Assembly: GCA_016192455.1 (NCBI GenBank)
Contig: JACPUC010000007.1
Span: forward strand, 256,720-290,817
DNA from: Candidatus Tectimicrobiota bacterium
Lineage (GTDB): Bacteria; JACPUC01
Reading direction: 5' to 3'
Length of the DNA: 34,098 nucleotides
The notes under the pieces are model-generated. The model was not told where the DNA came from. It saw only the letters and a program-made list of their open reading frames with translations, and did no database searches. A program made the translations under genes and the position numbers. Positions 5,066 through 33,735 of this stretch are shown here, in pieces; position 1 is the stretch's first letter; each line of letters opens with the position of its first letter.

Positions 5066-6055
5066 CTACGCCTGTTGGCAGTGCAGCCTTGTGGCGACCT
5101 GCACCGCTTTGCTTCCCTTCAACGAGCCGGCATGGCCGAGGAATTTCCGCACGCCCTCCACGTTGACGACGAGCTTGGCGCCGGCATCCTGGGTCAGTTG
5201 AATCAGATCGCCGGCGGCCAGCGTCAGAAGCTCGCGCACCGAGATTTCCGCGCCGCCGAGTTCCACCGCGATCTCCACCTGGGTTCCCGCCACGTTCTCC
5301 GCAATGCGGCGGCGCCAGGTGTCATCCACCCCCTCTTCTTTCGTCTGGAAGCCGGTATTGAGCTTGTGGCGAATCGGCTCGAGCATGGAGTAGGGGATGC
5401 AGATGGAGATGCGTCCCGCGCGTTGCATCTGCTCGATCTCCACCTCAAAGTGGGCCACCACCACAACCTCGGCGGGGGGGGCGATGGAGGCAAACTGCGG
5501 AATCGCTTCCTCGCGCTCGACGACCGTCCGCACCGGCAACATCACCTGCCAGGTCTTCTCGACATCCAGGAGAAGTTGCTTCACCACCTTGCGCATCATG
5601 CGCAGCTCGATTCCCGTGTAGTCGCGCCCTTCGACGCGCGACTGGAACTGGCCGCGCCCGCCGAAAAACGCATCGATCATGTCGTAAACCAGGCGACTCT
5701 CCACGACGAGCATCGCCAAGCCATGCAGCGGCTCCATGCGGAAGATGTGCAGACTGGTGGGCAGGGGCAGAGACTTGACTAAGTCGCCAAGTTTCACGAA
5801 GGCGCTGGTAAGGAAGTTGACATCGACAGGCCGCTGCAGGCTGGTGGTGAGCGTGACGCGCATCCGGCGCCCCAGTTTTTCCTGGATCATGTCGAAGGAG
5901 GGCATCGGATCCCGTTTGACCTTCCCCTGCGACGTGAGGTCAAAGGGCACCACTTCACCGGCCGCCGGACCCGGATCGGTGCCGGTCTTGACCTCTCCCT
6001 CAACCACGCCCTTCAGGAGCGCATCCACCTCTGCCTGCGACAGGATCTGATTCAT
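5066..6055 (-). CDS. fliM: Flagellar motor switch protein FliM
   Basis: N-terminal CheY-binding peptide ILSQAEVDALL, a middle domain with FFGG and CIPYSMLEPI, and a C-terminal SpoA domain. Confidence 0.96.
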   Translation of the reverse strand: MNQILSQAEVDALLKGVVEGEVKTGTDPGPAAGEVVPFDLTSQGKVKRDPMPSFDMIQEKLGRRMRVTLTTSLQRPVDVNFLTSAFVKLGDLVKSLPLPTSLHIFRMEPLHGLAMLVVESRLVYDMIDAFFGGRGQFQSRVEGRDYTGIELRMMRKVVKQLLLDVEKTWQVMLPVRTVVEREEAIPQFASIAPPAEVVVVAHFEVEIEQMQRAGRISICIPYSMLEPIRHKLNTGFQTKEEGVDDTWRRRIAENVAGTQVEIAVELGGAEISVRELLTLAAGDLIQLTQDAGAKLVVNVEGVRKFLGHAGSLKGSKAVQVATRLHCQQA

Positions 6056-6119: not shown

Positions 6120-6902
6120 TCACTCCTGCCGGGGTCGCAGTTCAAGCCTCTTCGACTCACTCCTGCCCTCGTCTGGACGTGTGAGCACTACGTCGGCGCG
6201 CTCATTGCGCTCCCGCTCGGTTGACAACAGGCTCGACACGGCAGGCCGGCTACTGCCATAACTCCAGGCGCTGAAGCGGCTCGGGTCGAGCTTGCTGGAA
6301 CGCTGGAGCAGGTGGAGCACGGTCATGGCCCGCGCCATGCCGAGCTCCCAGGCAGAGGCGTAGGCGCCGCGCGCCGCCAGCTTCTGGTCCGCGTGCCCCT
6401 CGATCAGCACCTTCACCTCAACCTCACGGATGATCCGGGCAAGCTCCATCAACTGCTGCCGGCTCTGCGGGAAGAGCTCCGCCGTGCCCTCCATGAAGCG
6501 TAAGGCGGGGTTGAAGCTCACCAGGTAGCGCCCGTCATCATCGCCGGCGAGGTTGAGGCGTTTCGAGAGGTAGCCGATGGCATCCTCCTCCTCCTCGTCA
6601 CGCGCCTTGGCGAGGAGATTTTGCAGCAGCTCCTCGGTCACGGGAGCCCCCTCAAGATTGCCACCTTTGCGGGGGGCAATATCTTCCTGGAGGCGGACCT
6701 CGCTTTTCGTCCCCTTCTCCAGCACCCCCAGGGCTTCGGGGAAGAAGCTGAACGCGACTTGAACGGACTTGTTGTCCATCGAGGACATCGAGAGAAGCAT
6801 CACGAAGAACGTCAGGAGCAACGTCAACAAGTCGGAGAACGTCACCATCCAGGCGTTCGGATCGAGACTTGCGCCTGCCGGCTCCTGGAGCTTGCGGGCC
6901 AT
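6120..6902 (-). CDS. motB: Flagellar stator B subunit (MotB/MotS/PomB-like), copy 2, with the ion-binding Asp
   Basis: TM motif WMVTFSDLLTLLLTFFVMLLSMS (Asp24). OmpA-like C-domain with degenerate motifs (EGHAD, AWELGMARA, NERADV). Confidence 0.9.
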   Translation of the reverse strand: MARKLQEPAGASLDPNAWMVTFSDLLTLLLTFFVMLLSMSSMDNKSVQVAFSFFPEALGVLEKGTKSEVRLQEDIAPRKGGNLEGAPVTEELLQNLLAKARDEEEEDAIGYLSKRLNLAGDDDGRYLVSFNPALRFMEGTAELFPQSRQQLMELARIIREVEVKVLIEGHADQKLAARGAYASAWELGMARAMTVLHLLQRSSKLDPSRFSAWSYGSSRPAVSSLLSTERERNERADVVLTRPDEGRSESKRLELRPRQE

Positions 6903-7122
6903 ACGCGCGCACTTTCTGTCGTGGTCCCCGCGGGGTGGGACCGGGAGTCTCTCCTAGAGGCGCCTCGCCTCCCGTCGTCGCATGCTGCGGGCGCCAGGTC
7001 GGTCCTAGGACTCCGCCACGGGGGTGCATCGCGCGATTTGCCGCCAGCCCCGCGCGCTCCACGGCTGCCGCCGCCAGAGGCTCCGCGCTGACCGCGGGGG
7101 AAGGAGGCCGCGCGCCACCCAT

Positions 7123-7911
7123 TCAGAACGTCGTCGAGAAGGTGAACCCCTTGAAATCGAAGAGGCGCTGCTTCACGTTCCGTTTGCGCAGCGGGCCGAC
7201 GAGCCTGATCTCGACGCGCCGATTCCGCACCCTGCCCTCTTCCACATCGTTGGTGTCAATCGGATGCTCCGCCCCGCGACCCACGGCCATGAGGCGCCGT
7301 GCCGCCACCCCCCGCCGCTCCAGGTAGCGCAGCACCTCCACGGCGCGCGCGCCCGACAGCTCCCAGCTCGTCGGGAACAGTCCCCCCTGGGGTGGAACAT
7401 TGTCGGTATGCCCCTCAACGACGATGTTGTTCGTTGTCTGCAAGGCGAGGCCCGCCACCGCGTCGAGGTACGTATAAGCCTGGGGCTTCAAGGTGGCGCC
7501 GCCCGGCAGGAAGAGGAGACTGCTGCCGAGCGAGATCGCCACGTTCTCTTCGCGGGAGATGACCTCGTCCTCGCTCGTCGCCTCATCAGCGGGGTCGCCG
7601 GACCATGCCTTCACCTTCATGCCCAAACGACGGAACGTCTCGAGACTTGCCTTCAGGCCTTCATCCTCCGGGTTCAGGATCGGGGCCTGCGGGGGCATCA
7701 GCGACTTGCCCGGCTCAAATTGCACCCCTCCCGGCAGAATGCCGAAGCTGCCCAGCAGCGAGCCGATCGCCAGGCGCTGCCGGTTATCGTCCTTCACCGA
7801 AATCGAGTTCAGGAGGATGAAGAACGCCAGCAGCAAGGTAGCCAACGCGGTCATCAGCACCACGAAGGAGCCCGCCTGCTGGGCCTCTTGCTTGGCTTTC
7901 CCGCGCGCCAT
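7123..7911 (-). CDS. motB: MotB-like stator B subunit, copy 1, lacking the conserved TM Asp
   Basis: Directly follows motA. Single N-terminal TM FVVLMTALATLLLAFFILLNSIS, a plug-like helix, and a canonical OmpA-like domain (EGHTDNVP, SWELSGARA, NRRVEI). Confidence 0.85.
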   Translation of the reverse strand: MARGKAKQEAQQAGSFVVLMTALATLLLAFFILLNSISVKDDNRQRLAIGSLLGSFGILPGGVQFEPGKSLMPPQAPILNPEDEGLKASLETFRRLGMKVKAWSGDPADEATSEDEVISREENVAISLGSSLLFLPGGATLKPQAYTYLDAVAGLALQTTNNIVVEGHTDNVPPQGGLFPTSWELSGARAVEVLRYLERRGVAARRLMAVGRGAEHPIDTNDVEEGRVRNRRVEIRLVGPLRKRNVKQRLFDFKGFTFSTTF

Positions 7912-7949
7912 TCCACTCCCCCAACCTTGGTGTGCCGCGTCTCGACGAG

Positions 7950-8711
7950 CTAGAAGGATGACTGCCGCAGCCGCGGCGACAGGAACGCATGCAGCTTCTG
8001 CTCGACGATGCGCGGGTTATCGCCGGCGGTGATCGAGAGGATGCCCTCGATCATCAGCTCCTTCTCGAGCTGCTCTTCGCTGGAGCGCGTGCGCAGCTTG
8101 CCGGCGATGGGCAAGAAGAAGACGTTGGCGAAGATGGCGCCGTAGAAGGTGGTGATCAGGGCGACCGCCATGGCGGGGCCGATCCTGCTCGGGTCATCGA
8201 GAGCTTGCAACATCTGCACCAGCCCCACGAGGGTGCCGATGAGGCCCATGGCCGGCGCGAAGGTGCCCAGCGTTTGAAACAGCTCCGCTCCCAGGCGGTG
8301 GCGGTTCTGCGAGAACTCCAGCTCGGTCTCGAGGATATCCTCGATCGCCTTGGGTTCCATCCCATCGATGACGAGCTGGAAGCCCTTCGCCAGGAAGCTG
8401 TCGGTAATTTCGTCCGCCACCCCTTGCAAGGCCAGGATGCCGTCCCGCCGCGCCACGGTCGAGAACTGCACAAACTTCGGGATCCACGCGTGCGGCGTCG
8501 TCGACTTGAAGAAAAACGCATGCCGCACCACCGCGAGGCTGCCGATCATCTCCTTCAAGGGGTAGTTGACGAGGCCCGTGCCCAGGGTGCCGCCGGCCAC
8601 GATCATCAGCGAGGGGATATCCCAGAAGGCCATCAGGCCACCGCCGCTCAGGATCGCGAAGAAGATGAGCCCGAATGCCGAGGCGATCCCCAGGAGAGTT
8701 GCAAGGTCCAC
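7950..8711 (-). CDS. motA: Flagellar stator A subunit (MotA/PomA/MotP-like)
   Basis: 253 aa, GTG start with GGAG RBS. Motifs PSLMIVAGGT, APAMGLIGTLVGLVQML, GPAMAVALITTFYG and EGILSI..GDNPR. Confidence 0.96.
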   Translation of the reverse strand: MDLATLLGIASAFGLIFFAILSGGGLMAFWDIPSLMIVAGGTLGTGLVNYPLKEMIGSLAVVRHAFFFKSTTPHAWIPKFVQFSTVARRDGILALQGVADEITDSFLAKGFQLVIDGMEPKAIEDILETELEFSQNRHRLGAELFQTLGTFAPAMGLIGTLVGLVQMLQALDDPSRIGPAMAVALITTFYGAIFANVFFLPIAGKLRTRSSEEQLEKELMIEGILSITAGDNPRIVEQKLHAFLSPRLRQSSF

Positions 8712-8820: not shown

Positions 8821-8836
8821 TGCAAGCAATATGCCA
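8821..8836 (-). promoter_or_regulatory. sigma54 -24/-12 promoter for motA-motB-motB-fliMNOPQ
   Basis: Minus strand TGGCAT-ATTGC-TTGCA, about 110 bp upstream of motA. Confidence 0.82.
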
Positions 8837-9194: not shown

Positions 9195-9898
9195 TCAGCG
9201 AAAGATGAGGAGGGCTGCAAGGAGGAGCAGGCCAAGCCAGGTGAGCGGGAAGTAGTAGGAGAGGATGAGGCGCTGTCGACGAGCCACGCTGCCCAGATCG
9301 GCGAGCTTGTCATCGAGGTGCTGCACGAATTCGAGCTGGTGCTGCCAGATTTTGGTCAGGGGACTCCAGATGCGGTGCTGAGAGTTCTGCAGGAGGGCCG
9401 CGTGACTCTTGTGGAGCTGTGCCGCTAGCGAGGCTTCGAGCTGCTCAAATCGCAGCGCAAGATCATCCACCCCTTCCCCGGAAGAATCCGGCGTGAACTG
9501 CGCCGCCTCAGCCGCCGGGAAGGAAACTTCCAGCGGATCATCCTCGGGAAACTCAGGACTCTGGTCAGGCGGAGGCAAACTTCCAGCGGATCATCCTCGG
9601 GAAACTCAGGACTCTGGTCAGGCGGAGGCTGCCGATCCACCCCTTCCCCGGAAGAATCCGGCGTGAGCTGCGCCGCCTCAGCCGCCGGGAAGGAAACTTC
9701 CAGCGGATCATCCTCGGGAAACTCAGGACTCTGGTCAGGCGGAGGCTGCCGAACCTCTGCGGCAATCTCTTGGGGCGTCACCGGCGATTCCAGCTTGGAG
9801 GCATCGAGCGAGAACTCACCGATGGAGATGTGACCATCTCCATCGAACTCAACCTTTTCAGGCATCCCGTTCTGCGGCTCCTGATCACTCCGGGCCAT
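9195..9898 (-). pseudogene. Frameshifted (or misassembled) gene for an acidic Pro-rich repeat protein with a helical region and C-terminal membrane anchor
   Basis: ORFs 9425..9898 and 9195..9578 share the peptide PPPDQSPEFPEDDPLEV in different frames. Removing one 53-bp copy fuses them into a 216-aa ORF ending LILSYYFPLTWLGLLLLAALLIFR. ATG at 9898 has a GAGGG RBS. Confidence 0.7.
9465..9751. repeat. Two 117-bp (39-aa) direct repeats plus one extra perfect 53-bp sub-repeat
   Basis: Units start at 9465 and 9635 (offset 170 = 117 + 53). An identical 53-mer aaacttccagcgg...ggcggaggc occurs at 9524-9576, 9577-9629 and 9694-9746. Confidence 0.95.
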
Positions 9899-11791: not shown

Positions 11792-11807
11792 AGCAACAAC
11801 TATGCCA
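11792..11807 (-). promoter_or_regulatory. sigma54 -24/-12 promoter for the receiver-TPR gene
   Basis: Minus strand TGGCAT-AGTTG-TTGCT, about 70 bp upstream of the GTG start. Confidence 0.8.
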
Positions 11808-28245: not shown

Positions 28246-28261
28246 AGCAAGGCACGTACCA
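28246..28261 (-). promoter_or_regulatory. sigma54 -24/-12 promoter for the flgB operon
   Basis: Minus strand TGGTAC-GTGCC-TTGCT, about 115 bp upstream of flgB. Confidence 0.8.
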
Positions 28262-33719: not shown

Positions 33720-33735
33720 AGCAAGATTTATACCA
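33720..33735 (-). promoter_or_regulatory. sigma54 -24/-12 promoter for the TPR-kinase-regulator unit
   Basis: Minus strand TGGTAT-AAATC-TTGCT, about 95 bp upstream of the TPR start. Confidence 0.8.

Follow-up and report, generated by a model that had tools for sequence, protein, structure and literature searches.

Why should a flagellar locus encode one stator A subunit together with two unlike B subunits, the first of which lacks the ion-binding aspartate (Asp)? The question is raised by a stretch of 34,098 nucleotides (nt) from a Candidatus Tectimicrobiota bacterium (assembly GCA_016192455.1, contig JACPUC010000007.1, positions 256,720 to 290,817), referred to here as the window, in which motA is followed by two motB genes, motB1 and motB2, whose products represent two protein families that we call B1 and B2. 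The Asp-less B1 family is old, conserved, and apparently undescribed, and the reading that we favor, at a rough probability of 45%, is that these proteins form a MotA5:B1:B2 stator with a single ion site, in which B1 and B2 would be the unlike halves of the central dimer. The features on which the argument turns are as follows (aa, amino acids; TM, transmembrane).

7950-8711, minus strand: motA, stator A subunit, 253 aa; Pfam MotA_ExbB 109.3 bits
7123-7911, minus strand: motB1, Asp-less MotB paralog, 262 aa; MotB_plug 29.1 bits, OmpA 71.3 bits; comprises a TM helix, a conserved plug motif, an OmpA-like domain, and a predicted C-terminal beta-hairpin
7846-7848, minus strand: codon 22 of motB1, GCG (Ala), at the position of the ion-binding Asp
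6903-7122, minus strand: spacer between motB1 and motB2, 220 nt, unusual for the family
6120-6902, minus strand: motB2, Asp-bearing MotB, 260 aa; MotB_plug 56.5 bits, OmpA 52.3 bits; OmpA motifs of a lineage-specific form (HAD, AWELG, NERADV)
6831-6833, minus strand: codon 24 of motB2, GAC (Asp), ion-binding site

The open reading frames (ORFs), their coordinates, Ala22 of MotB1, and Asp24 of MotB2, as given in an earlier note on this DNA, were borne out by the sequence and by HMMER alignment. The membrane helices read FVVLMTALATLLLAFF in MotB1 and WMVTFSDLLTLLLTFF in MotB2. The best solved relatives of both proteins are the MotB chains of stator structures, and in alignments with chains from 6ysf, 8ucs, and 6ysl, Ala22 stands opposite the Asp of FSDTITLLLTFF, and Asp24 of MotB2 falls onto it. 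The GCG codon (7848-7846) is two base changes away from GAT or GAC. Both proteins score above the curated Pfam cutoffs for MotB_plug (PF13677, 24 bits) and OmpA (PF00691, 27.2 bits), and the OmpA-like domain carries GHTD, SWELS..RA, and NRRVEI in MotB1 and GHAD, AWELG, and NERADV in MotB2. At the level of NCBIfam equivalogs, MotB1 falls under all of the cutoffs of the MotB, MotD, MotS, and PomB models (best MotD, 141.7 versus 283 bits), MotB2 also falls under all cutoffs (best "MotB family protein," 110.2 versus 259 bits), and the top model for MotA, PomA, scores 281 bits under a cutoff of 341. By the features that mark a stator B subunit, MotB1 has the plug, the OmpA domain, and the adjacency to motA and lacks the ion-binding Asp, which MotB2 possesses; MotB1 is a genuine member of the MotB family in which one defining feature is missing. 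The whole stretch is matched with 0 differences by a 4992-nt contig of run X1, which is possibly the source of the assembly, and the closest relative of MotB1 (P0002, 89% identical) has Ser at the Asp site, so that Ala22 is not a local slip of assembly. A related contig from run X6 differs at 252 letters and 8 gaps over ~2894 nt and keeps the frame of motB1 through a compensating +1/-1 indel pair at 7470/7474.

Is the missing Asp a peculiarity of one genome or the property of a family? A search with B1 scored 8000 candidates and returned 3922 proteins at E <= 1e-5, and among the best 120, which were examined, the Asp is absent in 118 and present in 2 (P0088 and P0115). A pattern scan across species-representative genomes gave 533 matching stretches, 304 of which encode a relative, and the best 80 loci were fetched; these provided 81 B1-labeled ORFs and 74 B2 ORFs, with all three genes held by 71 loci. 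NCBI assigns the 80 loci to Thermodesulfobacteriota (43), Myxococcota (19), Pseudomonadota (5), Nitrospirota (2), Nitrospinota (2), and Bdellovibrionota (1), with 8 bearing no label, and cultured carriers of B1 include Desulfatibacillum alkenivorans DSM 16219 (L031) and Dethiosulfatarculus sandiegensis SPR (L152). A possible further carrier is Desulfovibrio vulgaris Hildenborough, in which a gene for an "OmpA family protein" lies between motA-1 and motB-1. The order motA-B1-B2 is found in 77 of the 80 loci, with fliM also present in 67. The three others are L073 and L018, which end at contig edges, and L008, which has no motA in the 2.5 kb upstream. In the latter, a Nitrospirae bin (1-2500), B1-B2-fliM-fliN is preceded by two ORFs that, judged from their translations, resemble ABC-transporter ATPases, and there is no adjacent motA, unlike in its near relative L010.

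At the Asp column, the 81 B1-labeled ORFs have Ser (63), Ala (13), Thr (3), Cys (1), or Asp (1), and the lone Asp belongs to the second gene of L087, a mislabeled B2. Each of the 74 B2 ORFs has both the Asp and, four residues before it, a Trp; Trp occupies that motif position in 1 of the 81 B1-labeled ORFs. The earlier note had asked whether first copies consistently lack the Asp, and they do, with Ser, Ala, Thr, or Cys in 80 of 81; second copies always retain the residue (74/74). The note had also asked whether close homologs of MotB1 might retain the Asp, and they do not, given the Ser of P0002 and its absence from 118 of the 120 best matches. Literature searches in the main texts of one collection of papers found no description of an Asp-less MotB paralog. 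Two proteins outside the B1 clade are also of note: in the tandem pair of L096 (G014:C82), the second member has Ala at the Asp site (WQLIYIALMM...), and the MotB-like protein P0109 has Gly (WQIVYSGF...). Among MotB-like proteins, the Asp may have been lost more than once.

Whether the two copies are still maintained was addressed by the ratio of nonsynonymous to synonymous substitution rates (dN/dS), calculated by the Nei-Gojobori method for locus pairs with a MotA identity of 86-98.5% and a dS of 0.15-1.5 in all three genes. This gave 36 pairs from the 71 three-gene loci, 13 of them nonoverlapping, with the following medians.

MotA: dN/dS 0.087 (36 pairs), 0.067 (13 nonoverlapping pairs)
B1: dN/dS 0.24 (36 pairs), 0.13 (13 nonoverlapping pairs)
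B2: dN/dS 0.20 (36 pairs), 0.15 (13 nonoverlapping pairs)

B1 and B2 are both under purifying selection, and in this comparison, which the earlier note had proposed for each copy, the values for B1 are like those for B2. For a lineage-specific dN/dS, the 30 other genomes returned were all kin at the level of "same domain" only. The two copies have also been inherited together. In a tree of 39 B1 proteins, 39 B2 proteins, and 12 other MotBs, for which alternate loci were taken and the window and L089 were added, B1 and B2 each lie on one side of a branch, with support of 93 and 90 in the Shimodaira-Hasegawa-like approximate likelihood ratio test (SH-aLRT), and their subgroupings match. In a second tree of 24 hand-picked diverse pairs and 32 other Asp-bearing MotBs, which are mostly single-copy and in many cases encoded at motA-motB-fliM-fliN loci, the clades of B1 and B2 receive SH-aLRT support of 100 and 96. 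None of the 32 other MotBs falls inside either clade, and no B2-clade gene without a B1 occurs among the rows of this tree, which leaves the branching order among B1, B2, and the single-copy groups unsettled. A scan with the B2 alignment added 78 new loci, 28 of them trios and 50 of them single motA-motB loci (five assigned by eye), the latter including Desulfopila, Geothermobacter, Deferribacter, Aquificales, and Bacillus-type loci. From the co-inheritance and the trees, therefore, the trio is an old derivative of the ordinary motA-motB-(fliL)-fliM-fliN arrangement.

These data bear directly on the idea that B1 is a decaying duplicate, or an artifact of assembly or annotation, with no function. 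The loss of an essential residue is what would be expected of a dying copy, and B1 does fall below every NCBIfam cutoff, but full-length ORFs are found in 80 loci under several phylum labels, the dN/dS values are 0.13-0.24, the family has invariant motifs, and the X6 contig keeps its frame despite the paired indels. We find this explanation hardly credible, and a pseudogene or an assembly error can be rejected on the basis of the run contigs, the dN/dS values, and the conservation of the family.

If both copies are maintained, what has each of them kept? Within the membrane helix, the cytoplasmic half of B2 is fixed or nearly fixed, with W, M, T, and D at 100% and F at 96%, and in B1 the same columns around the lost Asp are variable (1.3-2.9 bits). 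The half nearer the periplasm reads LLLxFF[IV]xL without variation in B1 and B2 alike, with L27, L28, F30, F31, I32, and L34 at 100% in 80 B1 proteins. The stretch following the helix is strongly conserved in B1 (A48, G50, S51, L52, G54, F56, G57, L59, and G62) and variable in B2, where most columns exceed 2.5 bits. Among Asp-less B1 sequences, the plug motif within this stretch, A.GS...G.[FLY]G, is carried by 67 of the 80 ORFs from the fetched loci and by 114 of the 118 search matches. It is present in none of the 74 B2 proteins, and it occurs together with the Asp in single-copy MotBs from Aquificales, Deferribacter, and others (L090, L121, L141, L142, L144, L161, L168, L116, L170, and P0088). 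As read from these motifs, a reciprocal division holds across the family, with the ion site kept by B2 and a plug motif of the ancestral type kept by B1. Because the plug motif is found in B1, in 0/74 B2 proteins, and alongside the Asp in single-copy MotBs, the reciprocal loss pairs the ion site with the plug and not with the wall anchor.

This distribution of constraint is also the first evidence to bear on a different role for B1, namely, that it lies outside the MotA ring as a membrane-anchored, wall-binding accessory that positions or stabilizes a MotA5:B2(2) unit by means of its periplasmic domain and C-terminal hairpin, in the manner of MotY in the T-ring or of FliL in its rings. The unconstrained cytoplasmic half of the B1 helix would suit such a protein. 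However, a plain anchor would have no need of an LLLxFFIxL core that is invariant and the same as in true stator subunits, or of a MotB-type plug, and the plug motif of B1 is more conserved than that of B2 itself. MotY of the T-ring is an OmpA-like, wall-binding, and nonconducting helper of the stator, and it is not known to have a MotB-type TM helix or plug; B1 has both, each highly conserved.

The wall-binding domain provides further evidence on this point. The Asp of the (H)TD motif and the Arg of the LS..RA motif contact diaminopimelate, and these correspond to D170 and R189 in MotB1 and to the Asp of GHAD and the Arg of MARA in MotB2 of the window. MotB2 thus retains the Asp of HAD, the Arg of ARA, and also the second Arg of NER. 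Across the 74 B2 proteins, the wall motif is mostly canonical (H in 62, T in 54, D in 67, N in 65, W in 72, S in 68, and R in 71), as is NRRV (67, 70, 68, and 63). The odd motifs of the MotB2 of the window are shared by P0121 (93% identical) and P0122 (82%), and the next relatives, at ~40% identity, have NRRVE, so these motifs are fixed in this lineage and are not general. The same protein lies on a long branch (1.0-1.1, versus 0.7 for MotB1) and has a lower identity to the protein of the nearest relative (82%, versus 89% for MotB1), from which some relaxation of its periplasmic part may exist. In this lineage, then, the periplasmic part of B2 may be partly relaxed, as far as the motifs and branch lengths indicate, with wall binding not demonstrably lost.

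The earlier note had seen complementary defects in the pair, had spoken of reciprocal degeneration, and had proposed to test whether second copies have degenerate peptidoglycan-binding motifs. The part of this that concerns the Asp of MotB1 stands. The part that concerns B2 does not, as its wall motifs are mostly canonical across the family and the substitutions in the MotB2 of the window spare the key Asp and Arg and are not a family trait. As a rule for the family, a division of labor that leaves the wall to B1, with binding lost from B2, is ruled out by these canonical motifs. In B1, the Arg of LS..RA is replaced by Met in 25 of 81 proteins (for example, SNWEISAIMALKVL), and a large B1 subgroup may therefore not bind peptidoglycan in the usual way. 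For a wall-binding accessory, the OmpA-like domain of B1 is a point in favor, and the Met in place of the key wall-binding Arg in 25/81 is a point against. A B1-specific C-terminal motif (FDFKGFTF in the window, 7123-7161) is present in 49 of 81 B1 proteins and 0 of 74 B2 proteins.

Structure prediction places these elements in a single chain. The AlphaFold2 model of MotB1 has a mean predicted local distance difference test (pLDDT) score of 79.2 and contains helices at 5-38 (TM), 42-55 (plug), and 84-103 (linker), followed by an OmpA-like fold at 115-238 and two C-terminal strands (249-253 and 256-260) that are predicted to form a hairpin. A two-chain model of B2 with B1 gave an interaction prediction score from aligned errors (ipSAE) of 0.74, with 0.71-0.74 in three runs and 0.00 for the best control; 58 of 80 solved complexes attain that mark, as do 2 of 110 mismatched pairs. 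The runs share at least 62% of contacts, the pLDDT of the partner is at least 68, and the modeled interface consists of the TM helices together with a helix and a strand of the OmpA domains. The pass may stem from solved MotB homodimers, and the model therefore shows likeness rather than binding of B1 to B2 or a preference of B1 for B2. Covariation between the chains was analyzed for 100 B1/B2 pairs (effective number of sequences, 64); 12 of the top 100 column pairs fall in the predicted interface, compared to 2.0 expected and up to 13 in slid controls. At the predicted two-fold axis, the mean residue volume is 98 at B1-187 and 142 at B2-189, with B2 larger in 49 of 74 loci, a size asymmetry that is a weak hint given that the loci are kin. 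For the accessory role, the modeled beta-hairpin carrying the C-terminal motif and the fact that the complex model is best defined where the OmpA domain meets B2 are points in favor; set against the conserved helix core and plug, they leave an accessory outside the MotA ring unlikely in our judgment.

In the MotA5:B1:B2 stator, the only Asp for ion binding would come from B2, together with a conserved helix half on the cytoplasmic side of the membrane. B1, without an ion site, would keep the helix half on the periplasmic side, which packs within the MotA ring, and would bring the ancestral-type plug helix lost by B2, an OmpA-like wall-binding domain, and often the extra C-terminal hairpin. Such a unit would be gated and anchored largely via B1 and driven by ions at the one site in B2. 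We infer the shared MotA ring, the 5:1:1 stoichiometry, and the use of ions in this scheme from five findings: the pair is strictly co-inherited, its genes abut at most loci, the half of the B1 helix that faces the ring does not vary, B2 has retained the ion site and B1 the plug, and the complex model passes its controls. In the alternating-site model, as presented in the preprint by Deme et al., both Asp residues are used in turn, and each triggers a 36-degree step. A bolder version of our proposal, which we regard as possible but somewhat doubtful, is that this is a widespread natural 5:1:1 stator in which one of the two central subunits binds ions, the neutral Ser or Ala of B1 acts as a permanently protonated site, and the ring is ion-gated at every second 36-degree step.

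How does such an arrangement compare with systems that have been described? The locus shares its gene families, gene order, and MotB_plug and OmpA domains with canonical MotA5MotB2 and PomA5PomB2 stators (6YSF, 6YSL, 8UCS, and 8BRI), and it differs from them in having two unlike B genes per motA, a B1 without the Asp, and a B2 without the plug motif present in related single-copy MotBs; in the preprint by Deme et al., the Asp of the stator B subunit is called invariant. The closest described case is the motA/motB1/motB2 operon of Aquifex aeolicus (Takekawa et al. 2015, PMC4525482), in which a single motA likewise precedes two motB genes. There, however, the N-terminal and TM regions of the MotBs are 97% identical, the proteins differ only in the periplasmic part, and each functions with MotA as a chimera, whereas in the window the TM regions differ and B1 has no Asp, so the locus is not of the Aquifex type. 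In the trees, the pair at an Aquifex look-alike locus (L093) falls outside the B1 and B2 clades. Two looser analogies are found in a review (PMC9389320). In AglR/AglQ/AglS of Myxococcus xanthus, one MotA-like protein has two MotB- or TolR-like partners, for which it is not known whether they form hetero- or homodimers; in contrast to B1, AglQ and AglS are predicted to have a mid-membrane Asp, and they are TolR-like and not flagellar. ExbB-ExbD-TonB is a 5:2 motor in which ExbD also pairs with the Asp-less, single-pass TonB via the same periplasmic domain, but TonB is not a paralog of ExbD, and this system is likewise not flagellar.

The surroundings of the trio in the window are those of a flagellar operon, with the following features.

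8821-8836, minus strand: predicted sigma54-type promoter-like site, TGGCATATTGCTTGCA, an exact match to TGGCAY-N5-TTGCW
5066-6055, minus strand: fliM, the next gene of the operon; Pfam FliM 177.9 bits
4556-5029, minus strand: fliN; Pfam FliMN_C 87.9 bits
2783-4543, minus strand: long fliO-like gene, 586 aa

The sigma54-type site, which the earlier note had placed upstream of both motB genes, is confirmed as an exact match and lies ~110 nt upstream of motA. It is one of six such sites in the window at one mismatch or fewer (1209-1224, 2075-2090, 8821-8836, 11792-11807, 28246-28261, and 33720-33735), compared to 1.55 expected; three are exact and three have one mismatch, and 6/6 lie on the minus strand, that of the flagellar genes. 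In the fliO-like ORF, the Pfam FliO match is confined to residues 456-515, and the N-terminal part is long, rich in Pro, Ala, and Glu, and without a match. Further downstream are fliP, fliQ, and fliR; upstream of motA are fliK, flgD, flgE, and three genes containing tetratricopeptide repeats (TPR), namely, glycosyltransferase-TPR, TPR, and response-regulator-TPR genes. The ORF immediately upstream of motA has no Pfam match. At 9195-9898, a peptide of ~40 residues (PPPDQSPEFPEDDPLEVSFPAAEAAQ.TPDSSGEGVD) is repeated in two minus-strand ORFs (9195-9578 and 9425-9898) that overlap in different frames. The DNA contains a perfect tandem duplication of 53 nt (9524-9629), and ORF 9425-9898 has no Pfam match; these ORFs may be a single repeat-containing gene broken by a frameshift. 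The fliL gene is on the same contig, ~7.5 kb outside the window (G000:C3:248867-249154, L100), unlike in L010, where it lies between motB2 and fliM (5484-5996). On another contig, the same genome encodes a second stator pair (G000:C23:125891-127183; loci L002 and L007) consisting of a MotA of 264 aa and a MotB of 284 aa that keeps the Asp (WVTTYGDLMSVLLVFF).

The spacing of the genes bears on yet another role for B1. Across 71 related loci, the median distance from the B1 stop to the Trp codon of B2 is 57 nt, ~51 nt of which encode the N-terminus of B2. In the window it is 271 nt, an outlier shared with 2 of the 71 other loci. The spacer at 6903-7122 folds no better than its shuffles (z +0.89), and no sigma54-type site was found between motB1 and motB2 with the pattern TGGCAY-N5-TTGCW at up to one mismatch. 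The possibility of an RNA element in the spacer was rejected, the sole Rfam match being sR32 at 15.5 bits against a threshold of 40. The related X6 contig spans the spacer with a 1-nt deletion at 7020.

Such a spacer would permit separate control of B2, as might be wanted if B1 formed its own MotA5:B1(2) units, bound to rotor and wall but nonconducting, that competed with active MotA5:B2(2) and served as a brake, a placeholder, or a leak-proof reserve. With its TM core, plug, and OmpA-like domain, B1 could plausibly assemble with MotA in the absence of B2, and in E. coli and Salmonella, MotB with a mutated Asp is still assembled into the motor, which also favors this role. Against it, a constitutive brake made from the same transcript would be costly, with the genes abutting in most loci, and the sigma54 pattern, fold, and Rfam checks revealed no evident regulator between motB1 and motB2. 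Moreover, the lack of the ancestral plug motif in 74/74 B2 proteins is a better fit to a B2 that depends on B1 than to B2(2) units, and no B2-clade gene is without a B1 among the rows of the tree. On balance, separate MotA5:B1(2) units seem to us improbable.

Several observations nevertheless weigh against the MotA5:B1:B2 stator. E. coli MotB D32 mutants are dominant-negative, and if the two Asp residues are used in alternation, a one-site unit might not turn. The complete second MotA/MotB pair could power the motor alone. L008 has no motA beside B1-B2, the 220-nt gap between motB1 and motB2 of the window is unlike the spacing of most of the family, and the position of fliL elsewhere than between motB2 and fliM in this genome also calls for caution. 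The complex model, as a prediction, cannot tell B1:B2 from B1:B1 plus B2:B2. The covariation is no more decisive, as the top pairs involve a few hub columns and include impossible TM-to-OmpA pairs, and a same-column test of 25 contact versus 74 noncontact pairs gave p = 0.19.

The findings have implications for both annotation and the mechanism of the stator. Current names, "OmpA family protein" and "flagellar motor protein MotB," mask the Asp-less B1 family in annotated genomes. Current torque models rest on two equivalent, alternating Asp residues. If the bolder version of the 5:1:1 stator is correct, the number of ions per turn would be halved and the trade-off between torque and speed would be different, and the unit would constitute a natural test of the alternating-site rotary model. 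A conserved stator operon whose B1 has been without its Asp since before the lineages that carry it diverged would show either that a single-site unit can run or that the flagellar stator has a new kind of built-in subunit, inactive or regulatory.

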